Shown here piece after piece: positions 1,061 through 37,765 of a stretch of 37,765 bases of DNA. Under the pieces are notes generated by a model. The model searched no databases. It was not told the DNA's origin and worked only from the letters and a program-made list of their open reading frames with translations. Both the position numbers and the translations under genes were made by a program. The DNA lies in IMG/VR virus record IMGVR_UViG_643348545_000015, positions 1 through 37,765 of that record, one strand, 5' to 3'. The stretch is from a virus (lineage: Duplodnaviria; Heunggongvirae; Uroviricota; Caudoviricetes). The first letter of the stretch is position 1. The number at the start of each line of letters is the position of its first letter.

Positions 1061-1070
1061 AATAAATCAA

Positions 1071-1103
1071 GGGGTTACGTGAAAGCGTAGCCCCTTTTTC
1101 TTT
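1071..1103 (+). terminator. Rho-independent terminator after reconstituted ssrA
   Basis: 9-bp stem GGGGTTACG / CGTAGCCCC (one G-U pair), 6-nt loop, then TTTTTCTTT. Confidence 0.5.
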
Positions 1104-1183
1104 GGTAGTGGCGGCAAAATGGCGACAGACTTTTGCGTCCATCTTGCCTGTCGCCATCTTGAAATCATGCAAAGAGGTTTCAC

Positions 1184-1666
1184 ATGGAAGAACTTCACTT
1201 TGTTTACATCAATGCAAATGGTCGTATCGGTGTTCACTCTATACAGAGCATCAGTTATAGCGAAAATCATATACAGGGCATTTGTAAGAACACCGATCGA
1301 ATAAAAACCTTCCGAAAAGACCGCATTCTTAAACAGTACGATTCACCAGAACAAGCCATTCAGGAGTGCGCGTCATTCCTCCCCGAAAACTACTCACATC
1401 TCACCAAGCAGTCTGGTCCGAAAAAAAATACATTCGATGTATGTTTCACCGGATTTAAGAAAGCAGATAAAGAAAGATTGGTTGATAAGGCGAATGAACA
1501 AGGATTAACGGTAAGAACCTCTGTAACCCAAAGCCTTCAGATGCTCTGTTGCGGTTACAATGCAGGCCCATCAAAAGTATCGGCAGCCCGGATGAAAGGC
1601 ACAATCATCATAGATGAGCCTGGCTTTATACATTTTCTTGAAACGGGTGAGATCCCAGATGAATAA
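1184..1666 (+). CDS. Hypothetical cargo protein with C-terminal BRCT-like domain
   Basis: 160-aa ORF with RBS AAGAGG 8 nt before the ATG. C-terminal half (FDVCFTGFKKADKERLVDKANEQGLTVRTSVTQSLQMLCCGYNAGPSKVSAARMKGTIIIDEPGFIHFL) follows the BRCT pattern of NAD-ligase C-termini. N-terminal half unassigned. Confidence 0.6.
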   Translation: MEELHFVYINANGRIGVHSIQSISYSENHIQGICKNTDRIKTFRKDRILKQYDSPEQAIQECASFLPENYSHLTKQSGPKKNTFDVCFTGFKKADKERLVDKANEQGLTVRTSVTQSLQMLCCGYNAGPSKVSAARMKGTIIIDEPGFIHFLETGEIPDE

Positions 1667-1667
1667 A

Positions 1668-1685
1668 AACCTGCCGTAGCAGGTT
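1668..1685. terminator. Bidirectional hairpin between the BRCT gene and ogr
   Basis: AACCTGC-CGTA-GCAGGTT, with a T-run on the minus strand (TTTTTAT) and CTCTTTCTC on the plus strand. Confidence 0.4.
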
Positions 1686-1692
1686 CTCTTTC

Positions 1693-1911
1693 TCAAAAAT
1701 TCATATGCCCCTGACCACCTGGCAATGGATGTGGAGGAGCAGTAGCAATCAGTGCGGGTGTCACAATAAACCGGACCACTGTTTCATGGGTAACAAAAGT
1801 GCTCCCGCAGTTAATATTTTGGCACTGGCAGTAACGCTCTTTGGTGCTTTCAGTTACTTGAAAACTGCTCCTTGTGTGTGCCGCATGACCACACTTTGGA
1901 CAATTCATCAT
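1693..1911 (-). CDS. ogr: Late-gene transcriptional activator, zinc finger (Ogr / 186 B)
   Basis: 72 aa from the internal ATG: MMNCPKCGHAAHTRSS...KERYCQCQNINCGSTF...PHPLPGGQ, the C2C2 Ogr pattern. The longer ORF-track extension to 1956 is probably not translated. Confidence 0.85.
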   Translation of the reverse strand: MMNCPKCGHAAHTRSSFQVTESTKERYCQCQNINCGSTFVTHETVVRFIVTPALIATAPPHPLPGGQGHMNF

Positions 1912-1979
1912 ATCCAGATCCCTACCTTTGCTATCAGAATCATTGTAATGATACACAAAATATCAATATTGAGAACACT

Positions 1980-3080
1980 TTATTCCATTTCAAGATCATC
2001 AATCTTCACTTCGAGTTCAATACTGGTTGTAAAACCGTTATCCGGGCTGACGGTATGTGTCAGAGTCGTAATGGTCCATTCCGCATCATCTATCGGCTGT
2101 TTAAAACCACTGACCTTCACAGGCATTTCCGTGTAGAGATCTGCCCGCCCTTCCGCCAGTTGTAGCGAGAATGACGCAACGCCACGTTGCAGGCGTTCCC
2201 ACTGCATTTTCGCTGCCCGTTCAGCGTTGCTCCGGTTGGCATAAGTGCGATTAAGTACCAGCACGTTTTCATCCGTCCCCACCAGGTAATCGCCCTGCTT
2301 CGCTTCCGGCTCTTTCTTCTGCTTCTTAGTCCTGCGCTTACGCTTCACCGTAGTGCTTTCTTTCTTCGCGGGTTCGCGGGTATGCAACCAGCTGGCAATT
2401 ACCCCCGTGTAAGCTCCGCGATCTGCCAGGGTAAAGCGGTGACTGTCGCCGTCCTTACGTGTGATAGTAATCACCGGCAGTGGTTTACCGCTGGCGCTTT
2501 TGCCCTGTCCCTGCCGGATGAATAACAGATTGCCATTTTTCACCGATGCAATGGCACCGTACTGGCGCGCCAGCCGCATCAAAAAACTGCCGTCACTCTC
2601 ATTAGTCTGGTCTATATGCTCCACAGGCTTATCCGACAGGTCTTTACCCAGTGCCATCTTCAGCTTGTGCCGCGCGGCTATTTCCTTCACCACTTCCCCG
2701 ATGGTGGTGTTATGCCACGATTTTTCACGGCGGGTATTCAGCGTTTCCCGAAAATCAGCACTTCGCGCCCGGATAGTCAGGCGGTCCGGTGCGCCAGTGT
2801 GTTCAATCTCGTCCACCGTGAATGCCCCTTTCGGGAAAAGCGGCTGCCCCTTCCAGCCCAGCGCCAGCGTAATGACCGCACCACGGCGCGGCAGCACGAT
2901 TTTTCCGTCGGCGTCGTCCAGCTCCAGATCAAGCTGGTCCGCTTCAAAGCCCCGGTTATCCGTCAGCGTAAGCCCCATCAGGCGTTTGTCCAGCACAGTG
3001 GTGATATCCTTCCCCTCAATACTGATGCTGAATGCGGGAGTTTTGTTGCCTTTGTTAAGCAGTTCAGAGCTGAAATTCAC
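1980..3080 (-). CDS. D: Tail protein D (late control gene D family)
   Basis: 366 aa, FSISIEGKDITTVLDKRLMGLTLTDNRGFEADQLDLELDD... GTG start overlapping the U stop (GTGA). Confidence 0.88.
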   Translation of the reverse strand: MNFSSELLNKGNKTPAFSISIEGKDITTVLDKRLMGLTLTDNRGFEADQLDLELDDADGKIVLPRRGAVITLALGWKGQPLFPKGAFTVDEIEHTGAPDRLTIRARSADFRETLNTRREKSWHNTTIGEVVKEIAARHKLKMALGKDLSDKPVEHIDQTNESDGSFLMRLARQYGAIASVKNGNLLFIRQGQGKSASGKPLPVITITRKDGDSHRFTLADRGAYTGVIASWLHTREPAKKESTTVKRKRRTKKQKKEPEAKQGDYLVGTDENVLVLNRTYANRSNAERAAKMQWERLQRGVASFSLQLAEGRADLYTEMPVKVSGFKQPIDDAEWTITTLTHTVSPDNGFTTSIELEVKIDDLEME

Positions 3081-3562
3081 GACAGCAGCCCTCCCACCGT
3101 TTTACTGATATCGCTTAAGGCAGACGTTGCCGTATCCTGCAAATTATTCAGCTGCGCACTGAGATCACCGAACATATCGGACAGGGATTCATCCACCCGT
3201 TTGAGCGACAGGGTAAACTCAATCCGGCGCGGCATACCATCGCGGAAAAACTCCGTTTTAGTCTGATTCAGTCCCTCAATCACATACATGCCGTAAATCG
3301 TGCCGCTGCCTTCAATCAGGGGCCATGCTTTTCCCTGTTCTGCCATCTGCTCCAGAGCCAGCAACGACAGCCTGCCGCCCGTTATCTCCGGCATAAGAAC
3401 ACCAGAAAGCGTCAGCATGTCGTTGTCCGGTCCCAGAAACTGCGTGGACGGACGACGGTTTACCCGGCTGTTTGCCGCATGTCGCCAGCTGCGTTGATAC
3501 TGCAGTTCCTGATACGGAACGGTGCGCAGCATAAACACGTACAATCCCAGCACCATCATCAT
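3077..3562 (-). CDS. U: Tail protein U
   Basis: 161 aa MMMVLGLYVFMLRTVPYQELQYQRSWRH..., P2 gpU-like; position between T and D. Confidence 0.88.
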   Translation of the reverse strand: MMMVLGLYVFMLRTVPYQELQYQRSWRHAANSRVNRRPSTQFLGPDNDMLTLSGVLMPEITGGRLSLLALEQMAEQGKAWPLIEGSGTIYGMYVIEGLNQTKTEFFRDGMPRRIEFTLSLKRVDESLSDMFGDLSAQLNNLQDTATSALSDISKTVGGLLS

Positions 3563-8959: not shown

Positions 8960-9526
8960 TCAGGGAGATTTATTGTTCTTATTTGCCGGAAATTTTCGAT
9001 AAATGGTAGAAACGCCTACATCAAAAATCAGTGCAATACGCTGTCTTGATTCTCCGTCCTCGAGTAAACGCCCAATCTGTGCCCACTGTTCGCTGGTCAA
9101 CTTAGGACGGCGTCCACCTACTCTGCCTTTAGCACGAGCTGCAGCCAGCCCCGCCCTGGTACGTTCAACTATCAGTTCGCGTTCCATTTCAGCCAGGGCA
9201 CCCATGACATGAAAAAAGAAACGGCCCATTGGGGTGCTGGTATCAATACTGTCAGTCAGGCTTCGGAAATTCACGCCACGCTGGCGCAGCTCTTCTATCA
9301 GCGTAACAAGATGCCGCATACTGCGCCCCAGTCTGTCCAGCTTCCAGACAACCAGCGTGTCTCCTGCCGATAGTGTCCTGAGCAGCTTTTTCAGCCCCGG
9401 TCTGTCGGACTTGGTGCCACTGATTTTATCCTCAAAAATCCGCTCACATCCCGCACAGTTCAGTGCATTGCGTTGCAAATCGGTGTTCTGGTCATTTGTT
9501 GACACGCGTACATAGCCAATAAGCAT
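8960..9526 (-). CDS. Serine-recombinase DNA invertase (Hin/Gin/Cin/Pin family)
   Basis: MLIGYVRVSTNDQNTDLQRNAL...GDTLVVWKLDRLGRSMRHLV... with C-terminal HTH; start taken at the ATG 6 nt after GGGGG (the ORF track begins 2 codons earlier at 9532). Confidence 0.9.
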   Translation of the reverse strand: MLIGYVRVSTNDQNTDLQRNALNCAGCERIFEDKISGTKSDRPGLKKLLRTLSAGDTLVVWKLDRLGRSMRHLVTLIEELRQRGVNFRSLTDSIDTSTPMGRFFFHVMGALAEMERELIVERTRAGLAAARAKGRVGGRRPKLTSEQWAQIGRLLEDGESRQRIALIFDVGVSTIYRKFPANKNNKSP

Positions 9527-9581
9527 GATCATCCCCCTGAATAAAAACCGGAGATGATGCCAGTTAGCCGTTATCTCTGCA

Positions 9582-9607
9582 TTTTCATAAACGTTGGTTT
9601 GGGAGAA
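9582..9607. repeat. Invertase crossover site, left (26 bp)
   Basis: TTTTCATAAACG-TT-GGTTTGGGAGAA; 14 bp identical, in inverted orientation, to the site at 11440-11465. Confidence 0.75.
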
Positions 9608-10090
9608 GGCTCTGCATTACCGGTTGGGGTGCCTGTTCCGTGGCCTTCAGCCACACCGCCGACAGGCTGGCTGAAATGCAACGGTGCAGCTTTTTCTGCT
9701 GAAGAATACCCGGAACTGGCAAAGGCTTATCCGACAAATAAATTGCCTGATTTACGTGGTGAGTTTATTCGTGGCTGGGATGATGAACGTGGTGTGGATA
9801 GTGGGCGAACTCTGCTTTCAGCGCAAGGAGATGCTATTCGAAACATTACTGGCGGTTTTGGTCAGTTGCGCGTAAACAGCGAAATAAATGCAATTGTTGA
9901 TGTTCAAAGTGTGAGTGGTGCTTTTTACGGAGGTACCTCAGTCCGGAATAACATCAACGTATCTATGACATACGCTAATGACCGAAAAATCCGACAAGAT
10001 GTTCACTTCTCGGCGGCAAATGTTGTTCCAACAGCAAATGAAAATCGTCCACGTAACATCGCCTTTAATTATATTGTGAGGGCCGCATGA
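9596..10090 (+). CDS. Alternative tail-fibre C-terminal cassette (silent in this orientation)
   Basis: The frame opens exactly at the crossover site (INVGLGEGSALP...) and parallels AYLGLGE in H; it would fuse to the H constant part after inversion. Confidence 0.65.
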   Translation, partial: GLGEGSALPVGVPVPWPSATPPTGWLKCNGAAFSAEEYPELAKAYPTNKLPDLRGEFIRGWDDERGVDSGRTLLSAQGDAIRNITGGFGQLRVNSEINAIVDVQSVSGAFYGGTSVRNNINVSMTYANDRKIRQDVHFSAANVVPTANENRPRNIAFNYIVRAA

Positions 10091-10692
10091 TGAATAAAGC
10101 TGTATTAAATAGCGAACTCATCACCACAAAGGCGGGAGACATTACCGTTTACAATTATGATGGTGAGACACGAGAATATATTTCCACATCAACTGAATAT
10201 CTTGCTGTGGGTGTCGGTATCCCGGCATGTTCCTGTTTAGATGCTCCTGGAACACATAAGGCTGGTTATGCAATCTGCCGTTCGGCAGATTTAAACTCAT
10301 GGGAATATGTGCCAGACCATCGCGGTGAAGTTGTCTATAACACCGAAACGGGAGAATCAAAAGAAATCACAGCTCCGGGTAATTACCCTGAAAATACAAC
10401 CACTATCGTCCCGTTAACGCCATACGATAAATGGGATGGTGAGAAATGGGTGACGGATACCGAGGCACAGCATAGCGCCGCAGTAGAAGCGGCAGAAGCA
10501 CAGCGCCAGTCGCTGATTGATGCTGCAATGGCTTCCATCAGTCTGATTCAACTGAAATTACAGGCCGGGCGGAAGCTGACGCAGGCAGAAACCACCCGAC
10601 TTAACGCCGTGCTGGATTACATTGACGCGGTGACGGCAACAGATACCAGCACTGCGCCGGATGTCATCTGGCCTGAACTGCCGGAGGCGTAG
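10087..10692 (+). CDS. Alternative tail-fibre assembly protein (G')
   Basis: 201 aa; C-terminus ...[26 protein letters not shown] parallels the G C-terminus ...[24 protein letters not shown]. Confidence 0.75.
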   Translation: MMNKAVLNSELITTKAGDITVYNYDGETREYISTSTEYLAVGVGIPACSCLDAPGTHKAGYAICRSADLNSWEYVPDHRGEVVYNTETGESKEITAPGNYPENTTTIVPLTPYDKWDGEKWVTDTEAQHSAAVEAAEAQRQSLIDAAMASISLIQLKLQAGRKLTQAETTRLNAVLDYIDAVTATDTSTAPDVIWPELPEA

Positions 10693-11083
10693 GCCATTCA
10701 ATATCTGGAGCACTGGAGGTATCAACCAGTTCCAGTGCGTCCAGATAATCCAGCCACAAATTATATTGCGCCAGTTCCTCACCTTTCAGACGACCAATAG
10801 CGGCTTTACCAGGCCATTGCTTACTGTTCATGTATTCGTTGGCCTGTTCAATAAGTATACTTTTCATTCCCTCCGCTTCAGCTATTTCCTGTTCCTGTGT
10901 CTTCGCTGGATATTCAGTAAGTACAGGGTAGTTATCCGGGTTATTGATAATAATTTTCCCCGTACTCTGACCATTCATAAGTTCATAATAAAGAGCATCT
11001 TCAATATCGAAAGTATCATCGGGAATATCGCTGTTATTTTCAGAGAAAAATCCCTGAACAGATGGGGACCATTTCATTTTCAT
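10664..11083 (-). CDS. G: Tail-fibre assembly protein G (current orientation)
   Basis: 139 aa, directly downstream of H on the same strand. Confidence 0.85.
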
Positions 11084-12501
11084 AATTTCCCAATTCCTAA
11101 AATGTGGACATCATCAGCCTTACGGGCATTCCAGGTGACAATTACATCGGTAGAGTGACGATTAACTGAGATTGCATATGCTTCGTTAGTCGAGCCAGAA
11201 ACTTTTGTAGCAAACACAGCAAACAGGACACCAAATGACTGGGGCCATTTATAGCCTGACAGCTGATAATTACCATTATTCAGTGTTACAGCTTTGGCTG
11301 CTGCACTTGATGGAATCGTCAGCCACTGAAGTATCAACCCTCCTGGCAAAAGTTGTTTTCCGTAATAATCCCTCACCCCACTAAATGAAGCCATGTCCGG
11401 TATCTGATTTTCCCCTGTTCCCACACCCCGTTTTGCCGCTTCTCCCAAACCAAGGTATGCGAGAAGACCAGCTACATCCTTTCCACTCAAATTAGTCAGC
11501 GTATTGTCCAGCGGTTGTTTACCTGCTAGCGCATTAAGCATTGTCGTGGCAAAGTTCGGGTCATTCCCCAGCGCCGCCGCCAGTTCGTTCAATGTATCCA
11601 GTGCCGCAGGTGCAGAACCCACCATTCCTGCAATCGCCGATTTCACAAAAGCCGTAGTGGCAATCTGTGTATTGTTGACCGACTGCGCCGCAGTAGGTGC
11701 TGTTGGCGTTCCGGTAAGTGCCGGACTCGACAGCGGCGCTTTCAGTGCCAGCGCATTATTAATAGTGGTACTGAATTTCGGGTCATTGTTAATGGCTGCG
11801 GCAATTTCTTTCAGTGTGTCCAGCGTGGCTGGCGCACCGTTAATCAGAGCAGTAATAGCGGCCTGAACAAACTCTGTGGTCGCAATCCGAGTGGTGTTAT
11901 TTCCTGCTGCAGGCGTCGGCGCTTTTGGTTCTCCGGTAAATGTCGGATTATGTTTCTGCGCATACTGGGTATGAGGATCTTGTGCGGCAATGTGGTTTCT
12001 CATCTGGTCATCCACATACAGCTTTAATTCCAGGACTTTATCATCCACGTATTTACGGGTTGCCAGCACTACAGCAGGGTCGATTTTCAGGATGATATTG
12101 TCCGTGCTGCTGGTAATCAGCACCATGCGCACGGTCTGGGTACGCCCGCTGCCTTCAGCCAGTTGCGGCTTATAGCTTTCCGGGCAGTTTCCCACGGCAA
12201 TCAATGCCCCGGACTCATCAAACAGGCCCACTTCACGTATCCACCAACCGCCCTCGTTTTCAGGGATCACCTGTTCAGCAATAATCTGGCTACTGTTCTG
12301 CGGGTCGATATAAAGCATATTCAACGCAGCCCGGCGTTTCTCATTTACCAGTGCCGTCTGCTTTGCGTCCGGCGTCGGTAATACTCCGCCGCCATCGCCG
12401 ACCGCCATATGGGTAATTTTTAGCGGCACACCGAGCGCGGCGGCGCTGGCAAGTTTCGCCGCGCCAATATCCGTCAGCAGGGTATAAAATTTTGTGCTCA
12501 T
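11080..12501 (-). CDS. H: Tail fibre protein H
   Basis: 473 aa [39 protein letters not shown]... with repeated TTAFV/ALxGK fibre motifs; C-terminal ~128 aa lie inside the invertible segment. Confidence 0.9.
11440..11465. repeat. Invertase crossover site, right (26 bp), inside H
   Basis: TTCTCCCAAACC-AA-GGTATGCGAGAA; inverted partner of 9582-9607. Confidence 0.75.
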
Positions 12502-23753: not shown

Positions 23754-23787
23754 GTTTAAACTGGCTGTCGGAACAGCCAGTTTAAAC
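23754..23787. terminator. Bidirectional hairpin between Q and the convergent cargo operon
   Basis: Perfect 15-bp stem GTTTAAACTGGCTGT / ACAGCCAGTTTAAAC with loop CGGA. Confidence 0.55.
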
Positions 23788-24630
23788 ACCGGCACCAATG
23801 AAATCGCCATATGAATCTTCTTCAAGGCTGATGTATTCTACCCTCCATTGATCCATCCGCCTCAATGCATACAGGGAGAAATGAGTATCAGCAACAGCTA
23901 TGCACGTATTCAATTCTATAAGTTCTGAATGCCCCAAGGTTGGATCACCATAAAACTTATAAAACAAAGCCTTTAGATCAGAACATGTTTGTTCAGCCGC
24001 TCTTCTGGCATCGGGGCCACCTTCAGTTGCATCATAAACAACATTGATAGAAAGCTCATATGGTATGCCTTCCTCAAGATCGTTAAATCTTTCTTCGCCC
24101 AAATCGAAAAAAACTCCGATCAAATGCTCTGCGTTTGTGGCGATAATATCCGCAACTTCTTTTTCGAAAATAAACTTTTTATCCTCGTCGTAAGCCCGCA
24201 AGCGCTCTTCAAACGAGTTAGGAAACGCTGGACGACCATACTTAGCAGCTAACCATTGCTTAAGAGCTTGTTTCTCTTCTGTGCTAATGGAGAATGCTGG
24301 ATCGTTTTCCTCACAACAGAAAGCTTCTTTAGGAATGATGACTTTCCTTTCATGCCGGAGCTCTACTGCATTCTTCTTCGCACTTTCTGGGTTTTCAAAA
24401 CATAGATCGAGTATTCTCGGATGCTTAGCTCTTTTCATCCTGCTTGACCCCTTTTTCAAGGGGCCAAACATCAGTTCCACGTTTTTTTCTGAATTACTCT
24501 GTAAATCACAATCATGCGTTATAACTACAACTTTATGGTTCGTTTCATCAGGCTGCAGAATTCCAAGTGAAACGGCATCATCATGTTTAAGTACATGCCC
24601 CTGACGCCATGATGTTCCTCGTACCAACAT
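23782..24630 (-). CDS. Hypothetical protein, cargo operon gene 3
   Basis: 282 aa; ATG 9 nt after the gene 2 stop; no motif I can assign by eye; AT-rich codon usage. Confidence 0.6.
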   Translation of the reverse strand: MLVRGTSWRQGHVLKHDDAVSLGILQPDETNHKVVVITHDCDLQSNSEKNVELMFGPLKKGSSRMKRAKHPRILDLCFENPESAKKNAVELRHERKVIIPKEAFCCEENDPAFSISTEEKQALKQWLAAKYGRPAFPNSFEERLRAYDEDKKFIFEKEVADIIATNAEHLIGVFFDLGEERFNDLEEGIPYELSINVVYDATEGGPDARRAAEQTCSDLKALFYKFYGDPTLGHSELIELNTCIAVADTHFSLYALRRMDQWRVEYISLEEDSYGDFIGAGV

Positions 24631-24639
24631 AAATGTGAT

Positions 24640-25302
24640 TTATTCCTCTACCGTTCCAGGAATTGAAATAGATGACTTCCAATCATCTGTCGGTTTCGCC
24701 TTGCTTGCTAAGTAATTGGCCGATTCAGCAGCAGCATTCATCGCTTTAGCTTCATCAATCAATACCTGAACTGCCCTATTCCAATCCTCACCTTCTTTTA
24801 CTACGTCCATTAATGACTTACCATTAAATGCTTTCATTTTCACCAATAGCTTCGCATCATGGAGTCCAGCTTTGGAAAAAGAGTCAGCGACATTACTAAG
24901 GTTGGTAATGAATTGCACTTTTGAAGCATCATCAGGCTGGTTCTCCCCTGACAACCATTTATAGAGAGCCTGCCGAGTTATCCCCAAATCCTTTGCCAGT
25001 TCTGACATTGATGGAGACAGCACTTCTCGAATATTAGCTAAATGTTGGGCAACATTCCTGACATCAACCTCAGGAGAAATTGCAGGCGTGTACGTTGATT
25101 CTATGGAATCAAATGCAAACTGAACCCTTGGCTGAACATACTGACGCCATTGCTTATAAGCATTTACAGGGTATGAAGCCCCCGTACCAACTAATAGTAA
25201 AGATGCGGCGACAGCAACAACACCTGATACACATGAGCTTGACTGCAAATTTGGAGAATATCGATCTACAGAGCCTATGCTTCCGGTGGGAATTGCATAC
25301 AT
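24640..25302 (-). CDS. Hypothetical protein with N-terminal hydrophobic helix and HTH motif, cargo operon gene 2
   Basis: Start MYAIPTG... 7 nt after GGAGGTGA; hydrophobic CVSGVVAVAASLLLVGTGASY; HTH-like SMSELAKDLGITRQALYKWLSGE. Confidence 0.6.
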   Translation of the reverse strand: MYAIPTGSIGSVDRYSPNLQSSSCVSGVVAVAASLLLVGTGASYPVNAYKQWRQYVQPRVQFAFDSIESTYTPAISPEVDVRNVAQHLANIREVLSPSMSELAKDLGITRQALYKWLSGENQPDDASKVQFITNLSNVADSFSKAGLHDAKLLVKMKAFNGKSLMDVVKEGEDWNRAVQVLIDEAKAMNAAAESANYLASKAKPTDDWKSSISIPGTVEE

Positions 25303-25321
25303 TTTAGTCACCTCCGTTGTT

Positions 25322-26131
25322 TCAGTGCCATTTAGTACGGGCAAAATCTGAAACCATGCCTTCAAATGCTTCTTTAACTTTACTATGCAACGAAAGAATC
25401 TGTTTTTCAATTAACTGCAAATCAGTTGACATGTTGCCTTCAACATAATGATCTGTATCAATTATTGCGTGCATACGATGCTCTGTGTTACTAAATCTCG
25501 GCAACGGCAGTAAACCATTAGGAATCATATCTGGCGGAAAACCTAGCTGACCATTCATCTTATGTATTCGTGAAACCATAAATCCATTAGGGATCAATGG
25601 CTCAACACATGTCTGATATACGGACTCTTGTATAGACTGTATTGGCGTCCATCCGAAATCAACACCATGAAGTTCCTTTACAAGATACTGCTCAATTGTT
25701 TCGCTTTTCTCAGGAAACACAGCATCCAAATATCGAAGCCCAATCCGACTTAACAGCGATGGCTTAGCAAATTCTAGAACTTTGCTCAGACCAAGTATCA
25801 ATGACGAGATGAAAGATACATGGTTATCATAATATGTTGTATGGAACGTAATGAAATCGTTGCCTAAAACAAAACCAGATCTTCTATCTGCATCAATCAT
25901 CAACCAACTTGTCACAGGCTCAAATGAATGTACCGGTGGCTCATTGGGGTTTTTTATTTCAAATTTCAACTGAGTTGTATTGGAAACCTCAAATAAAGGA
26001 AATCCCTCAACTCTTAGCGCATCTTGTATGTCTGGAACATACTTACTCATTGCAGCTATTGGAGTAAACTTTACCTGTACCAATGCATAGTAAACGGGCG
26101 CATTGGACATACGTTCGCTGTTAGTACTCAT
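25322..26131 (-). CDS. Hypothetical protein, cargo operon gene 1
   Basis: 269 aa, RBS AAGGAGG before the ATG. The N-terminal pattern NAPVYYALVQVKF is vaguely reminiscent (from memory, unverified) of the uncharacterised TIGR04255 family. Confidence 0.6.
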   Translation of the reverse strand: MSTNSERMSNAPVYYALVQVKFTPIAAMSKYVPDIQDALRVEGFPLFEVSNTTQLKFEIKNPNEPPVHSFEPVTSWLMIDADRRSGFVLGNDFITFHTTYYDNHVSFISSLILGLSKVLEFAKPSLLSRIGLRYLDAVFPEKSETIEQYLVKELHGVDFGWTPIQSIQESVYQTCVEPLIPNGFMVSRIHKMNGQLGFPPDMIPNGLLPLPRFSNTEHRMHAIIDTDHYVEGNMSTDLQLIEKQILSLHSKVKEAFEGMVSDFARTKWH

Positions 26132-26494: not shown

Positions 26495-26728
26495 TTAATG
26501 CAGCCAGCTGTCGTCTTCCCACACCTTCTGCATAATTTTCATCACTTGCTTCCTTTCTTCGTCCAGTTGCAGTCCGGTCAGTTCCACACCGTTAGAGCTA
26601 CCTTTGCGGATACGAATTACCGTTTTGGGATACAGGGGGCGCAGATTACGGTAAAGCTCGGATTCAAGGGCGTCCAGGGTAGACTGGCTAATCTTCTGCT
26701 CTTTATCGATCATTATTTCAATGCGCAT
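26495..26728 (-). CDS. dinI: DinI-family protein
   Basis: 77 aa MRIEIMIDKEQKISQSTLDALESELYRNLRPLYP...WEDDSWLH, resembling E. coli DinI; RBS GAGGTGA. Confidence 0.8.
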   Translation of the reverse strand: MRIEIMIDKEQKISQSTLDALESELYRNLRPLYPKTVIRIRKGSSNGVELTGLQLDEERKQVMKIMQKVWEDDSWLH

Positions 26729-26738
26729 AAAAGTCACC

Positions 26739-26927
26739 TCAGCTGATGACATCCATTGAGCGGTTGTATTCGTGGCTTCTGATTTTTGCCATGAGTTCAT
26801 CAGTCAATTCAGAAACCCACTGCAGAGCCAGTCCCTTCTCTTCATCACTACACTCACTGGCCGCTACAAGCTTAAGAAAAAAATCAATGCGCTGGAGCTT
26901 CAAAGACTCCAAAAAATAGTCCTGCAT
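26739..26927 (-). CDS. Small hypothetical protein, first gene of the LexA-box operon
   Basis: 62-aa ORF with RBS GGAGGAAAG, 10 nt upstream of the dinI-like gene; function unknown. Confidence 0.5.
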   Translation of the reverse strand: MQDYFLESLKLQRIDFFLKLVAASECSDEEKGLALQWVSELTDELMAKIRSHEYNRSMDVIS

Positions 26928-27433: not shown

Positions 27434-29521
27434 TCAAATTTTCAGCAAGGGGACAGTTATTGCCACGAGTCCAAGGGGACAGTTATTGCCACGAGTCCAA
27501 GGGGCGCAAGCGCCCTGGTCGGCTGCCGCCTCCTGAACGTCAACGGCCTTACGAACCATTTTCCACTTCACGGCATGAGTGCAGATTTTGCCCTCTGCAA
27601 TGGGTGACCAGATGCCATAAATACGAATGCCGTGATCGCCATAGGCGGTCGGCTCTTCGTTGATTTCATAAGCGGTTCTGATGAGGTGATATTTACGGGG
27701 AACCAGTACGCCGCCCTGCTTCATGATGTAGGTGGCAAAACAACCAGCATCAGCTGCAGCCAGAATGGCATCAAGGCGCGGGTTATCCAGTACCGGCGCA
27801 CCTGCTTTTTTGTCACCCTGTTGCCTTGCCGCCTGACCAGCCAGCAATCGCAGTTCACGGTAAGCCTGACGCCCCGGAATGCCAAAGAAGCGGAATTGCT
27901 GAACACGATGCAGAGACGCCCAGGCATTAACGTATTCAGCGTTATCACGCAGAGATTTACCCGTTTCCTTGCTGATCTCGCCAGCCAGACCACGCCCGTC
28001 AATGTTCTTACTGATGTATTTCGCGATGTAGCTAGTCGGCGTTCCTTTGCGCGGGTTTATCAGCTCAGACTTAAAGCGTGGCCCCGTGTTATTACCCAGC
28101 TCCTCGCGGTCTTCACGGATAGCAAACTTACGCAACAATGCAGTAATGGCGCGGCGGTCTTTTTTGCGCATGAAACACAACAGGTGCCAGTGAACTGTGC
28201 CGTCATGATGCGGCTCAGCCACCCGCACGCCATACCAGCGCAACCCGGCTTTGTGCATCGCCTTACGAAATGCAGCAAACATGCCGACCAGATAATCACT
28301 GCTTTGTCTTACCGTCGCATTTGTCCAAGTCGGGTTGGGCCTACCGTTATTTAGCGTGGAATGGAAACGTGACGGACAGGTGATGGTGTAGAAAACGGCG
28401 CAGTCACCGCGCATTTCCGCGATAAGCTCCAGACCTTTAACACAGGCCATCATCTCATTGCGGCGATGCGCAGGGTTGCTGCTGCTGGCGTTTACCACAT
28501 CCTCCATGTCCAGCGTGTCGCCGTCTTCGTTCACCAGTTCATGAGAACGGAAAAACTCCAGCGACTTACGGCGCTGCTCACGTTTATGCATCACGGCTTC
28601 ATAGCTGACATAGGGAGATGCTTTTTTGCTGACCAGGCAAACAGCACGCAACTGCTCTTCCCGCCATTCGCAACGCATCTTCCACAATTTCCGATACCAC
28701 CAGTCGGCGCACAGCATACGCGCCAGCGACCCCGGAATGAGTTCATAGGGCACGGGTTTACGGCGGTTTCTTTTCCGGCGGAGTTGCTCAAACGCAGGCG
28801 GTATGACATCCAGTCGCAGGGTTTCCGCCGCCACCTTTTCCCATGTCTTGCGGATTTCTTCTGGCTTAACGTCATCGGTGGCATACAAATCGCCACAAGC
28901 GGCATCAAGGCACATGCTCATATGCGCAGCTACCAGGGTGGACAGGCGTTTCACCTGATCCTGACTCATTTCAGGCAGGATCAGCAGACCGTCCAGCCCT
29001 TCATGGCTTGCCATAAAGCGAAAAGAAGTGGATAGCTGACTGTCGCGTACATGCTCCAGTCGTTCCAGACATGGCTTAATCGTCTCACGCAAATAGCGGG
29101 AATAAGCCTTTGGCCTGCCCAGGCTGCTGAAGTATTCAATACGTTGCATCAGCGGCTTGCTGATATGGGAAGGCTGGGCGTTAACGTCCGCCAGAATGAC
29201 CATGCCCGGATTAAAACGCTGCTGCTCATGCGCCAGCTTTGCCCGGCTAATGAGCTTATCCTGCTCCATTTCGCGCTGGACAGGATCACGTGATTCATTA
29301 AAGAAATAACGCTCCCATACCTGATCACTCAGAGCCTCGCGGCGCAGTTGTTCCTGCTCGTTATCGGTAGCGTACAGAGTGATCAGGTTTGAAAGCGCAG
29401 AAACCGGCGCAACTTCCGCCGGGTCCAGATAAGGGTTAATGGCCTTTTTCGGGCTGTTCCATGAGAATGCTGCGGCGACCTCGTTAAAGCCGCTGCAGTT
29501 GTTCATATCAGCATGGCTCAT
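27434..29521 (-). CDS. A: Rolling-circle replication initiator endonuclease A
   Basis: 695 aa with HUH-type motif VHWHLLCF and tyrosine motif YIAKYISK. Confidence 0.9.
27446..27504. repeat. Tandem direct repeat, 2.3 copies of a 26-bp unit
   Basis: CAAGGGGACAGTTATTGCCACGAGTC at 27446-27471 and 27472-27497, plus CAAGGGG; lies in the last ~25 codons of A. Confidence 0.9.
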
Positions 29522-30550: not shown

Positions 30551-31054
30551 TTACTGATAGTGTTTTATGTTCAGATAATGCCCGATGACCTTGTCATGCA
30601 GCTCCACCGATTTTGAGAACGACAGTGACTTCCGTCCCAGCCTTGCCAGATGTTGTCTCAGATTCAGATTATGTCGCTCAATGCGCTGAGTGTAACGCTT
30701 GCTGATAACGTGCAGCTTTCCCTTCAGGCGTGATTCATACAGCGGCCAGCCATCCGTCATCCATACCACGACCTCAAAGGCCGACAGCAGGCTCAGAAGA
30801 CGCTCCAGTGTGGCCAGAGTGCGTTCACCGAAGACGTGCGCCACAACAGTCCTCCGTATCCTGTCATACGCGTAAAACAGCCAGCGCTGACGTGATTTAG
30901 CACCGACGTAGCCCCACTGTTCGTCCATTTCAGCGCAGACAATCACATCACTGCCCGGTTGTATGCGCGAGGTTACCGACTGCGGCCTGAGTTTTTTAAG
31001 TGACGTAAAACCGTGTTGAGGCCAACGCCCATAATGCGTGCACTGGCGCGACAT
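30551..31054 (-). CDS. insB: IS1 InsB frame (transposase made as InsAB' by -1 frameshift)
   Basis: ...[44 protein letters not shown]... open frame overlapping the 3' end of insA. Confidence 0.9.
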
Positions 31055-33644: not shown

Positions 33645-34277
33645 ATGTTAAACATCAGAATGGGTTCCGATACGGGAGGTAAGGCAGCTATTGAGAGGCT
33701 GCTTGAGGCTTATGGATTCACAACTAAGCAGGCATTAAGCGAGCACCTGAATGTCTCAAAAAGTACTATGGCAAACAGAGTGTTACGTGACAGTTTTCCT
33801 GCTGACTGGATAATTCAGTGTGCACTAGAAACCGGTGTTTCGTTACTTTGGTTAGCCACTGGACAGGGAAGCATGAAAGAAGGATACGAGCCTGAGAAAA
33901 GATCTCATAACGAGAACAAACAAGCAATTAAACCGTTATCCAAACTCATAACTCCATCTATTCCTAAAGGAACCTTGGAAAATGGACAACTCAGTATTGA
34001 TGAAGAGATTTTCCTAGACCACAGCATATTACCTGCAGATTATGAAGAATCGATGTTCTTAGAAACCCCTACTGATTGTTATCTCATCGATAAATCAGTT
34101 AAACAAGTCAGCAATGGATTCTGGCTTATCAATATTGATGGAATGATTATTATTGCAAAAATCATGCGGATTCCCGGCAATAAGATTGTAGTAAATCAAG
34201 ATGAAGCGTCTTTCGAGTGCTCTGCTGATGATGTGGAAGTTATTGGGCGTGCAGTCAAAGTAATAAAGAGTATCTAA
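33645..34277 (+). CDS. cI: Immunity repressor CI (186-type)
   Basis: 210 aa with N-terminal HTH (...LSEHLNVSKSTMANRVLRDSF...CALETGVSLLWLATGQG); I see no LexA-like Ser-Lys autocleavage motif; directly upstream of int. Confidence 0.8.
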   Translation: MLNIRMGSDTGGKAAIERLLEAYGFTTKQALSEHLNVSKSTMANRVLRDSFPADWIIQCALETGVSLLWLATGQGSMKEGYEPEKRSHNENKQAIKPLSKLITPSIPKGTLENGQLSIDEEIFLDHSILPADYEESMFLETPTDCYLIDKSVKQVSNGFWLINIDGMIIIAKIMRIPGNKIVVNQDEASFECSADDVEVIGRAVKVIKSI

Positions 34278-34279
34278 AC

Positions 34280-35296
34280 ATGACTGTCAGAAAACAGCCA
34301 AACGGTAAATGGTTGTGCGAGTGCTATCCCAATGGACGCAATGGCAAGCGCGTGCGTAAGCAATTTGCTACGAAAGGCGAAGCCATTGCTTTTGAAAGCT
34401 TCACAATGGAAGAAGTGAACAAAAAACCATGGCTGGGGGAAAAGGAAGATCGGCGACACCTATCAGAATTAATTGAGCAGTGGTATTCCCTGTATGGTCA
34501 AACACTCGCAGACCCCAAGCGCCTCATAGCGAAACTTAGAATTATCTGTAATGGTCTAGGCGATCCCATCGCTTCAGAACTGACAGCCGGTGACTTTACG
34601 AAATACCGCGAAGCACGGTTAAAAGGTGAAGTACGAAATGAAGATGGCACGTTTATGTCGCCCGTTAAGCCCCGCACGGTAAACCTTGAACAGCGCAATC
34701 TATCATCTGTTTTTGGTACACTGAAAAAGCTGGGCCACTGGTCAGCCCCCAACCCGCTTGCTGGGCTGCCAACATTTAAAATTGCTGAGAGTGAATTGGC
34801 GTTCCTGACCCCGGAAGAAATTAAACGTCTGCTGGATGCCTGCGCCGATTCTCAAAGCTCCAGCCTGCTTTTGATTGCAAAAATATGCCTGGCCACCGGC
34901 GCACGCTGGAGCGAAGCCGAAAACCTGCAGAGTCATCAGGTATCAAAATACCGTATCACTTATACCAAGACCAAAGGCAAGAAAAACCGAACTGTGCCTA
35001 TTTCTAAGGATTTATATGAAGAACTGCCTAAGAATAGGGGGAAGTTATTCACCCCATGCAGAAAAGCCTTTGAGCGTGCAGTAAAGCGGGCTGGTATCGA
35101 TCTGCCAGAGGGTCAATGTACTCACGTTCTGCGTCATACATTCGCTAGCCATTTTATGATGAATGGTGGAAACATATTGGTTTTGCGGGATATCCTAGGA
35201 CATTCAGATATAAAAATGACCATGGTCTATGCACACTTCGCCCCAGACCATTTAGAAGATGCCGTAACTAAAAATCCTTTATTTAATTTGAGGTAA
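34280..35296 (+). CDS. int: Tyrosine integrase (P2 Int family)
   Basis: 338 aa with C-terminal catalytic region ...HVLRHTFASHFMMNGGNILVLRDILGHSDIKMTMVYAHF... Confidence 0.93.
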   Translation: MTVRKQPNGKWLCECYPNGRNGKRVRKQFATKGEAIAFESFTMEEVNKKPWLGEKEDRRHLSELIEQWYSLYGQTLADPKRLIAKLRIICNGLGDPIASELTAGDFTKYREARLKGEVRNEDGTFMSPVKPRTVNLEQRNLSSVFGTLKKLGHWSAPNPLAGLPTFKIAESELAFLTPEEIKRLLDACADSQSSSLLLIAKICLATGARWSEAENLQSHQVSKYRITYTKTKGKKNRTVPISKDLYEELPKNRGKLFTPCRKAFERAVKRAGIDLPEGQCTHVLRHTFASHFMMNGGNILVLRDILGHSDIKMTMVYAHFAPDHLEDAVTKNPLFNLR

Positions 35297-35306
35297 GTAG
35301 TAATTT

Positions 35307-35975
35307 ATGAATAGCGAACTAGAGTTACTTATAAAAATATTATTCCCTTCCCTATCTGCCATTATATCCTTATTAGGGCTTAAAACAGGGTGGACTTATA
35401 AAAAAGACAAACTATTCACATCACGTAAAAACATTAGCGAATTTTCATATCAGATGTATAAAAGCAGTGAAGATCCGACCTTCAAAAAACTGGCGGAAGA
35501 TTACGGCATTGCTGCATTAACCAAAGATAACACATTGACAAAAAAACAAAGATTAATATTACTCAACACAACAAACCCCGTTAGCGATATAGATGATTAT
35601 TCCAAATGTCAAAGTCTAATTTCCATTACCACCCATAAAGAAATATTCGCATGGAATAAAAAAAGATATAAATACAGCATATATAGAAAATTAATAAAAA
35701 TTATAACAACTCTAATTTACTTCATGGGCAGTCTCATCGTAGCACTTCCTTTCAGTTATTCTGTTGTAGTAAGTGCTAAGATGATGGAGAAGATAAACCA
35801 TCTAACTACTTGGCAATACTTTGGTTTAAGCAGCTATTTTGTGGTATCGGGAGTAGCAATATGCTTTATCTGCCTAGATAAGCTCTCCAAGATTAAGATC
35901 GCCGAGAGATTAATCGTTTCAAATAGGCGTTTAGGCGACAAATGCAGTGGCGGCACTTTGGCGGCAGAAAGTTAA
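35307..35975 (+). CDS. AT-rich hypothetical membrane protein (cargo)
   Basis: 222 aa with about three hydrophobic helices (LELLIKILFPSLSAIISLLGL; IITTLIYFMGSLIVALPFSYSVVV; YFGLSSYFVVSGVAICFICL); Lys/Asn/Ile-rich; starts 11 nt after the int stop. Confidence 0.6.
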   Translation: MNSELELLIKILFPSLSAIISLLGLKTGWTYKKDKLFTSRKNISEFSYQMYKSSEDPTFKKLAEDYGIAALTKDNTLTKKQRLILLNTTNPVSDIDDYSKCQSLISITTHKEIFAWNKKRYKYSIYRKLIKIITTLIYFMGSLIVALPFSYSVVVSAKMMEKINHLTTWQYFGLSSYFVVSGVAICFICLDKLSKIKIAERLIVSNRRLGDKCSGGTLAAES

Positions 35976-36060: not shown

Positions 36061-36105
36061 ATGTAGGAATTTCGGACGCGGGTTCAACTCCCGCCAGCTC
36101 CACCA
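36061..36105. repeat. attR core: displaced 45-bp 3' end of ssrA
   Basis: Identical to 1016-1060. Confidence 0.9.
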
Positions 36106-36234
36106 ATCATGATTGGACGGTGTAAGGACTACACCAACAAAAACAGGAAGTTATAAGTCTCAGCAGGACACCGACCAGACGGTGAGGAGACAAAAAAGGA
36201 TACGCAACGGAGTCGCGACTCCCTATGACATTAA

Positions 36235-36688: not shown

Positions 36689-37765
<1,077 letters not shown>

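Follow-up and report, generated by a model that had tools for sequence, protein, structure and literature searches.

A WYL-BRCT protein encoded next to the attachment site of a P2/186-like prophage, a candidate block to, or sensor of, foreign DNA in lysogens

In phage lambda, the rexAB genes occupy the classical exclusion slot behind the prophage repressor. A prophage exclusion gene in a repressor-linked slot is also bstA of phage BTP1, the product of which senses the replication of foreign phage DNA (PMC8585504). WYL domains, in turn, are emerging as main sensors of single-stranded DNA (ssDNA) for bacterial DNA-damage and anti-phage programs, so far mainly within transcription factors, and the BRCT domains known from bacteria are nearly all attached to DNA ligase or to a DnaQ-like exonuclease. 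Here we describe a protein family that joins these two domains, without an enzyme and without a helix-turn-helix (HTH), in a repressor-operon slot of the Rex/BstA type. The member analyzed is encoded by ORF160, an open reading frame (ORF) at positions 1184 to 1666 of a 37,765-nucleotide stretch of viral DNA (IMG/VR record IMGVR_UViG_643348545_000015, positions 1 to 37,765), which is referred to as the window. The window contains a 35-kb P2/186-like prophage that is integrated in the tmRNA gene ssrA and ends at two copies of the attachment (att) core. From the folds, conserved residues, gene order, and fusions observed in this family, we infer a ligand, expression in lysogens, and a phenotype: with a probability of roughly 40%, the protein belongs to the repressor operon, binds ssDNA or 5'-phosphate DNA ends, and has a role in superinfection exclusion or abortive defense.

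ORF160 is a real gene and not a chance ORF. It is located on the plus strand (1184-1666, including the stop codon), encodes 160 amino acids (aa), and starts with an ATG 122 nt 3' of the attL core, between this core and ogr. A Shine-Dalgarno sequence, AGAGG (1173-1177, plus strand), was found 6 nt 5' of the ATG, where orthologs retain a purine-rich block, and a terminator scan detected a terminator-like hairpin right behind the stop codon (1668-1685, plus strand), which is common to ORF160 and the ogr gene facing it tail to tail. The gene that a sequence-only reading of the window had proposed at this position is thus confirmed, with a ribosome-binding site of its own and a terminator-like hairpin. 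The same reading held that P2 has no gene between ogr and attP, which is correct: in P2, ~100 bp separate the end of ogr from the attP core, and this interval contains a terminator followed by Int and integration host factor (IHF) sites, and no coding sequence.

A search of a collection of 5.8 billion proteins returned 122 homologs of ORF160. The comparison of the family profile with 1.84 billion cluster representatives gave 207 matches with E values below 1e-30 and 2,528 below 1e-3; at 50% identity, the full-length WYL-BRCT module is represented by no fewer than 207 clusters (E < 1e-30), and the weaker matches, towards 1e-3, probably include BRCT-only proteins. The protein matches PHROG 2561 over its full length (E = 2e-77). 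Pairwise dN/dS values among eight orthologs were between 0.04 and 0.11, indicating strong purifying selection, and 176 of 5,426 complete Escherichia coli genomes have an intact, annotated copy, with 95 to 100% nucleotide identity. Furthermore, the gene is found between attP and ogr in three sequenced virions of the genus Elveevirus (Cartapus, 500465-1, and Yersinia phage MLG42), so that ORF160 is packaged phage DNA and not host DNA.

An AlphaFold2 model of the protein, built on 67 homologs, had a mean pLDDT of 92.5. It comprises a WYL domain, consisting of an Sm-like five-stranded barrel and one helix (residues 1 to 66; 1184-1381), a variable inter-domain linker (residues 67 to 84; 1382-1435), of which residues 67 to 73 are modeled as a short helix, and a BRCT domain (residues 85 to 154; 1436-1645), all encoded on the plus strand. 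The pTM of 0.53 reflects a linker of lower confidence (pLDDT of 69 in residues 71 to 80) between two well-defined domains; this linker is also the region of greatest length variation in the family alignment.

The N-terminal half, considered unassigned in the sequence-only reading, can be assigned to the WYL (Sm-like) domains, and the Sm/SH3-like five-stranded WYL barrel is present. ORF160 itself gave no match to the Pfam WYL model (PF13280). Matches were obtained for 12 of the 67 family members, the best at 1.5e-5, several relatives score above the cutoff, and a broadened family profile retrieved PafBC (3e-6) and PafC (8e-5) from the Protein Data Bank (PDB). The conserved residues of this half are Y8, K41, T42, F43, R44, D46, and R47. 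In the profile alignment, R44 and R47, which belong to a nearly invariant TFRKDR motif, correspond to R211 and R214 of PafB, K41 corresponds to R208, and H29 to Y196, the tyrosine of the WYL motif, a position that is a tyrosine in most family members. R211 and R214 are indispensable for ssDNA binding by PafB (PMC11804915).

The WYL regulators CapW, BrxR, DriD, and PafBC have a winged HTH-WYL-WCX architecture, and in all bacterial regulators characterized so far the WYL domain has these two neighbors and provides the ssDNA-sensing pocket. The ORF160 protein differs in that its WYL domain is N-terminal, beginning at residue 3, and is followed by a BRCT domain as the sole other domain; it has neither the winged HTH nor the WCX dimerization/clamp domain, the tryptophan of the WYL motif is lost, and the tyrosine is replaced by histidine. 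Since both the winged HTH and WCX are missing, the protein is not a transcription factor of this class.

The C-terminal half was described as BRCT-like from the sequence, and the AlphaFold2 model indeed shows a BRCT fold (beta-alpha-beta-beta-alpha-beta-alpha, ~80 to 90 residues), so that the sequence-only reading withstands the structure-prediction check it had named. With 19.5 bits, ORF160 scores just under the gathering threshold of 21.3 bits of Pfam BRCT (PF00533), and relatives pass it (40 bits for P0196 and 74.6 bits for P0161; 57 of the 67 members match at E ≤ 0.1), so that its BRCT membership is based on the fold and on sequence evidence at the level of the family. According to the model, the S/T-G and lysine positions of the BRCT phosphate pocket are filled by T89, G90, and K131. 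All 67 sequences have T89-G90, with which strand 1 ends, and K131, with which helix 2 begins, and K92, K93, and K96 are nearly invariant. K131 aligns with the lysine of the GQSK motif of RFC1, in which the TG motif forms hydrogen bonds with a DNA backbone phosphate; in tandem BRCT domains, the counterpart of this motif is the phosphopeptide pocket (PMC9359705). The closest sequence matches are the DNA-binding BRCT domains of the LigA and RFC1 types, from which the ORF160 domain differs in standing with a WYL domain alone, outside a ligase or clamp loader, and in belonging to a protein that is, as a whole, near neutral instead of basic.

The family is present in databases as "hypothetical," as "BRCT domain-containing protein" or, wrongly, as "DNA ligase," the label of PHROG 2561 and of some RefSeq phage records; in Cartapus it is a "putative exonuclease." These names, together with weak NCBIfam hits against LigA and a DEDDh exonuclease, would be the case for such an enzyme or a decaying fragment of one, which we regard as extremely improbable. 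The LigA model was matched only at positions 549 to 650 of 652, with 19.6 bits against a cutoff of 444 bits, and the exonuclease match was confined to model positions 229 to 307 of 331, with 26 bits against 389 bits and no DnaQ-like domain. Since both matches reach only the terminal BRCT domain and a tiny part of the required score, the two labels should be regarded as wrong. WYL domain, linker, and BRCT domain use up all 160 aa, no catalytic domain fits, and adenylation, OB, Zn-finger, HhH, and exonuclease domains are absent. In addition, a relic would hardly be under such strong purifying selection or be conserved throughout the Gammaproteobacteria. The ORF160 product is a small, cytoplasmic, non-catalytic protein of two domains.

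The genomic context was studied in one genome per GTDB species, which yielded 49 loci, ~20 of them with P2-type markers within 10 kb. Two arrangements were found. The first, seen in ssrA integrators, resembles that of the window (smpB-ssrA-att-WYL/BRCT-ogr-D) and occurs in Escherichia, Erwinia, Klebsiella, Plesiomonas, Tatumella, and Citrobacter. In the second, found in remoter P2-like prophages, the WYL-BRCT gene follows the repressor gene on the same strand, usually directly, with gaps of ~2 to 35 nt after CI; in many cases, the integrase gene int comes next. The order CI-WYL-BRCT-int was observed in Xenorhabdus and in a metagenomic relative (L060), in which the gap after CI is 2 nt, and the gene is directly behind CI in Mannheimia PHL101 and Vibrio PV94. 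The repressor is a 186-type CI in Acerihabitans, Rahnella, Brenneria, Parasalinivibrio, and Hafnia (loci including L012, L014, and L028 to L030) and an HTH-S24 (lambda CI-like) protein in Aeromonas, Wohlfahrtiimonas, and Pseudomonas (S24-type CI loci L033, L035, and L039). In Serratia-type prophages and Burkholderia phage vB_FUB5a, one membrane-anchored Flk_N-like gene separates the repressor gene from the WYL-BRCT gene. A quick search upstream of the gene in Pseudomonas phage SC_8_H2H8_2017 found no repressor. Beyond recognizable prophages, the WYL-BRCT gene adjoins AbiGi, McrB_N-HNH, or Mrr_cat genes, or is an orphan.

On the circular map of the window phage, the order is CI, int, orf222, attP, and WYL-BRCT. 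The comparison of gene orders suggests that the ancestral order was CI, WYL-BRCT, int, and that the window lineage has the same operon interrupted by int and attP. Because these lie between CI and ORF160, integration places ORF160 at attL behind ssrA, at the prophage end opposite to CI. In the window, the repressor gene and ORF160 are separated by int, orf222, attP, and a terminator, so that the gene order points to co-transcription with the repressor in many relatives and not here.

The term "cargo," used for ORF160 in the earlier reading, is misleading, as the gene is fixed in Elveevirus phages and is found between CI and int in remoter P2-like prophages. The P2 defense hotspots include gpA-gpQ, Z/fun, and int-att, and those described for P2-like phages are gpA-gpQ, int-att (a minor one), int-primase, and the tail genes (PMC13586616). 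ORF160 is outside these hotspots, on that side of attP where ogr is located, and does not vary among Cartapus, MLG42, 500465-1, and six ssrA-integrating prophages of other genera. By gene order, it belongs to the lysogeny module of P2-like phages and is not random cargo. The variable slot is that between int and att, which contains orf222 in 29 of the 5,426 E. coli genomes, a RES-annotated protein in Cartapus, and nothing in MLG42, in agreement with the minor int-att hotspot. As these gene contents show, the int-attP slot turns over rapidly beside a constant WYL-BRCT gene. The Cartapus protein (2008-3213 of that genome, 401 aa, PHROG 7835) is annotated as RES/NAD+-binding.

This neighbor is one of the points in favor of a quite unlikely alternative, in which the WYL-BRCT protein would be a sensor of a phosphate-bearing small molecule, such as an NAD+ or ADP-ribose derivative or a cyclic nucleotide, and serve as adaptor in a nucleotide-signaling immune or toxin system. 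Binding of c-di-GMP is known for a WYL domain (PMC11880434), the possible ligands of BRCT domains include poly(ADP-ribose) (PMC6334254) and, as reported for ligase IV, NAD+ (reviewed in PMC10386641), and the ORF160 protein is not basic. Against this are the variable neighborhood, with the RES gene absent from the window and MLG42, the lack of a consistently linked cyclase or other signal-generating enzyme, and the DNA-binding LigA/RFC1 types as nearest BRCT matches.

The repressor-proximal position could also be that of a lysis-lysogeny modulator, in which the WYL domain would sense DNA damage as ssDNA and the BRCT domain would relay the signal to CI or Int and so tune induction or the establishment of lysogeny. 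PafBC, DriD, and CapW are ssDNA-activated sensors of DNA damage (PMC11804915, PMC11662680, PMC10853764), and BRCT domains commonly mediate protein-protein contacts (PMC10386641). In accordance, the gene is co-operonic with CI in relatives, with gaps of only 2 to 3 nt to CI or int in L060 and L056. We consider such a role unlikely, however, as membrane-anchored fusions and repressor-less copies beside restriction-type genes fit it poorly, and as int and attP uncouple ORF160 from CI in the window lineage. Moreover, homologs are also found behind S24 repressors; these LexA/lambda CI-like proteins respond to RecA by self-cleavage, which would make an additional damage sensor needless. Finally, the prophage already has a DinI-like ORF that resembles Tum of phage 186 in a domain match (26495-26800, minus strand). 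In 186-type phages, Tum is an SOS-controlled antirepressor, and the combination of a Tum-like ORF with a 186-type CI suggests that the prophage is SOS inducible via a LexA-controlled antirepressor.

Membrane association is frequent in the family. Among the best 150 family representatives, classified by size and predicted transmembrane (TM) segments, 86 are stand-alone proteins of ~160 to 200 aa, 44 (~29%) are longer and have predicted TM segments, mostly 1 to 3 N-terminal helices, and the other 20 exceed the stand-alone size and are soluble. In the P2-like prophage of a member of the Pasteurellaceae (L041), for example, there is a predicted 3-TM WYL-BRCT fusion between CI and gene D. In other cases, the neighboring gene encodes a membrane protein, namely, an orf222-like protein (L012 and L014), a Flk_N-like protein, orf283 or, 3' of int in Xenorhabdus, a 2-TM protein.

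In the longer relatives, Pfam recognized only WYL and BRCT domains. The longer soluble proteins include a recurrent C-terminal domain of ~230 aa, which is found in P0159, P0170, P0179, and P0186 (PHROG 36782) with invariant motifs that include GW.F.V, LDIK, and WTQG. This domain had no match in Pfam or in profile searches of the PDB, and PHROGs gave only families of unknown function; it may be an effector domain.

In the window, the slot between int and attR contains orf222 (35307-35975, plus strand), an AT-rich gene (GC content of 34.5%) that encodes three predicted TM segments and belongs to PHROG 21256. In the circular phage, orf222 and ORF160 are neighbors across attP, and orf222 homologs are located directly 3' of the WYL-BRCT gene in the Acerihabitans (L012) and Rahnella (L014) prophages. 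The idea that orf222 is an obligate partner, that is, that both genes form a two-gene system split by attP, was rejected in view of the 29 genomes with orf222 as opposed to 176 with ORF160, the different gene in Cartapus, and the lack of any gene in MLG42. We think that the link of orf222 to ORF160 may be facultative, or that orf222 may act in exclusion on its own.

Taken together, the retained PafB-type arginines, the intact lysine-rimmed BRCT phosphate pocket, which is of the type that binds nicks and 5'-phosphate junctions, the lack of an enzyme or HTH domain, and the repressor-operon slot with its frequent membrane tethering suggest a protein that recognizes ssDNA and 5'-phosphates. In the mechanism proposed, the protein would be produced in lysogens and its target would be DNA in which ssDNA occurs together with a nick or a 5'-phosphate end. 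Examples of such targets, and signs of incoming or replicating foreign phage DNA, would be cohesive or resected ends, gaps, and intermediates of rolling-circle replication. Once bound, the protein might cap the ends or nicks and stop sealing or replication by competing with ligase-type BRCT recognition or, alternatively, hand a signal to a membrane partner. The sequence-only reading had suggested superinfection exclusion or a modulation of DNA repair; both are plausible, and the context favors superinfection exclusion. A broader version, which we put forward only tentatively and hold to be doubtful, is that WYL-BRCT proteins are the sensors of a widespread, hitherto overlooked prophage immunity family that would detect single-stranded, 5'-phosphorylated ends or junctions of phage DNA, incoming or replicating, at the inner membrane and either block circularization and replication or trigger a membrane effector. 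The membrane part of this family would be fused, encoded by a neighboring gene, or absent, depending on the lineage.

The closest parallels to such a function are the Rex and BstA systems. As with lambda rexA/rexB and BTP1 bstA, the WYL-BRCT gene of the relatives is directly 3' of the prophage repressor gene in the same operon. Like RexA, the sensor that acts with the membrane protein RexB, the WYL-BRCT protein is a putative non-enzymatic DNA sensor with an often fused or adjacent membrane component, and the sensing of foreign phage DNA by BstA would be analogous to the role proposed here. There is, however, no relationship in sequence or fold to RexA, RexB, or BstA, ORF160 of the window is split from CI by int and attP, and its exclusion role is a proposal.

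Several observations weigh against the binding and exclusion role that we propose. The two contact arginines in the RWHVR motif of CapW (PMC11662680) seem not to be conserved, as judged by an indirect mapping of motifs via PafBC and not by superposition, and the WCX clamp is missing. The pI of the protein is 6.95, and that of its BRCT half is 5.8; the protein is thus near neutral, unlike DNA binders of the strongly basic, non-specific kind. In L056, L060, and MLG42, no membrane partner is adjacent, so that the link to membrane proteins is frequent and not universal, and the difference between the genome counts of orf222 and ORF160 points in the same direction. In the 87 nt between the strong upstream terminator (1069-1096) and the ATG, no sigma-70 consensus promoter was found. 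As to known defense candidates, only positions 335 to 406 of the 411-position PADLOC model PDC-S48 are matched (E = 1.8e-7), and the same holds for longer relatives; the two share a related C-terminal BRCT domain, and the rest of the model is unmatched. No paper in the searchable literature names both "BRCT domain" and "WYL domain," and, going by titles and abstracts, none of those on BRCT domains and prophages, defense, or exclusion concerns the WYL-BRCT family; PDC-S48, itself only a candidate, is not mentioned in this literature either. In a Foldseek search of BFVD, we retrieved mainly ligase BRCT domains and also a few ~160-aa proteins annotated as ligase-like or BRCT-containing in phages that may or may not be temperate.

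The latter proteins, from several other phages and grouped here by size and annotation, might be in line with a function in counter-defense or self-protection, in which the protein masks DNA ends, nicks, or ssDNA of the phage. This would shield them from host nucleases or, during induction, conceal the ssDNA signal by which host defenses under WYL regulators (CapW-CBASS, BrxR-BREX) are de-repressed. CapW-controlled CBASS lowers the induction of a lambda prophage ~100-fold via ssDNA sensing (PMC11662680). A WYL decoy in place before induction would be advantageous, and the ssDNA-binding arginine pair is kept. Anti-nuclease functions are usually encoded in early lytic operons, whereas this gene is part of the repressor operon; TM-anchored versions are ill suited to act as a soluble sponge, and no homology to a known anti-defense protein was found. 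We rate self-protection as rather unlikely.

The region upstream of ORF160 begins with a phage-supplied intrinsic terminator (1069-1096, plus strand; 12-bp stem and T-run) behind the 3' end of ssrA that integration rebuilds. Cartapus and the five other ssrA-integrating relatives compared have kept this terminator and, as it is conserved in ssrA integrators and phage genomes alike, it lies 5' of ORF160 whether the phage is integrated or circular. Candidates for the source of ORF160 transcription are a weak promoter and read-through from the very strongly expressed ssrA; inspection by eye of the region upstream of ORF160 revealed no Ogr-type TGT-N12-ACA site. In an alignment of seven genomes, the sole strongly conserved element between terminator and ATG was the nearly invariant sequence GTGGCGGCAAAATGGCG(A/G)CAG (1108-1128, plus strand), which consists of two TGGCG(G/A)CA direct repeats that are probably arm-type Int sites of attP. 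A 10-bp inverted repeat, ATGGCGACAG/CTGTCGCCAT (1119-1128 and 1148-1157), overlaps with these repeats; it was seen only in the window phage and Cartapus and could be an operator or a leader RNA hairpin.

ORF160 starts ~55 nt from the putative arm-type repeats. In addition, the gene orders are either CI-WYL-BRCT-int or int-attP-WYL-BRCT, so that int, attP, or both are always adjacent in P2-like phages, and the protein might be an accessory factor for site-specific recombination during integration or excision. This is very unlikely in our opinion, since there are copies without an adjacent integrase gene, many copies are membrane anchored, and relatives have a Cox/Apl-type directionality factor. 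The intermediates of tyrosine recombinases have 5'-OH and 3'-phosphotyrosyl ends, unlike the 5'-phosphate that the TG...K pocket of a BRCT domain would favor.

As for the remainder of the window, the DNA is that of E. coli and several genomes of Shiga toxin-producing E. coli match it at 100%; E. coli 2012EL-2448 is one example of a lysogen with exactly this prophage. The window starts with smpB (1-483), which is followed by ssrA (698-1060) and the attL core (1016-1061), a 46-bp sequence identical to the ssrA 3' end and exactly repeated in direct orientation as the attR core (36061-36106); the host gene csiD begins beyond attR at 36788. The ogr/delta-type late activator gene (1693-1956, minus strand; Pfam Ogr_Delta, 1.5e-20) is convergent with ORF160, and the order of the tail and head genes is of the P2 type. 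At the opposite end of the prophage are the genes of the 186-type CI repressor (33645-34277, plus strand; Pfam Phage_CI_repr and Phage_CI_C) and of the integrase (34280-35296, plus strand; Pfam Int_N and Phage_integrase).

Four other regions of the prophage deserve mention. A Hin/Gin-type serine invertase gene (8960-9532, minus strand) adjoins opposed ORFs for tail-fiber collar/assembly proteins (9554-10692, plus strand, and 10664-12501, minus strand), and positions 8960 to 12501 look like an invertible host-range segment. Three ORFs on the minus strand at 23782-26131, of 281, 255, and 268 aa, could not be assigned by Pfam, although the 255-aa product has a weak HTH; they are placed between the portal gene Q and the replication gene A, the classical old/tin defense hotspot of P2; they are probably an unrecognized defense or accessory cassette. 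At the 3' end of gene A, the 26-bp unit CAAGGGGACAGTTATTGCCACGAGTC is perfectly duplicated in tandem (27446-27497); the duplication covers 52 bp, no multiple of three, and may be related to an origin or result from a recent slippage event. In the early region, there is an IS1 transposase ORF (30551-31054, minus strand), and this insertion may have inactivated an early gene and rendered the prophage defective.

WYL sensors, BRCT domains that bind phosphate, and repressor-linked prophage accessory genes are kinds of elements already known, and the family is thus not categorically new. If its members were immunity sensors as proposed, theirs would be the first WYL domain to sense DNA directly without being part of a transcription factor or a CRISPR accessory protein, and a free-standing BRCT domain of bacteria or phages would have a defined role for the first time. 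An exclusion or defense factor of this type would represent a new sensor logic, in which the structure of DNA ends is recognized at the membrane; it would explain a conserved gene of the Peduoviridae and set right the erroneous labels "DNA ligase" and "exonuclease," which are being passed on from one phage genome to the next. Should the protein instead tune induction or hide phage DNA from the WYL regulators of the host, it would be equally informative on the signaling between prophage and host. The WYL-BRCT protein is well defined and widespread, and it is a candidate factor with which lysogens may block or sense foreign DNA.

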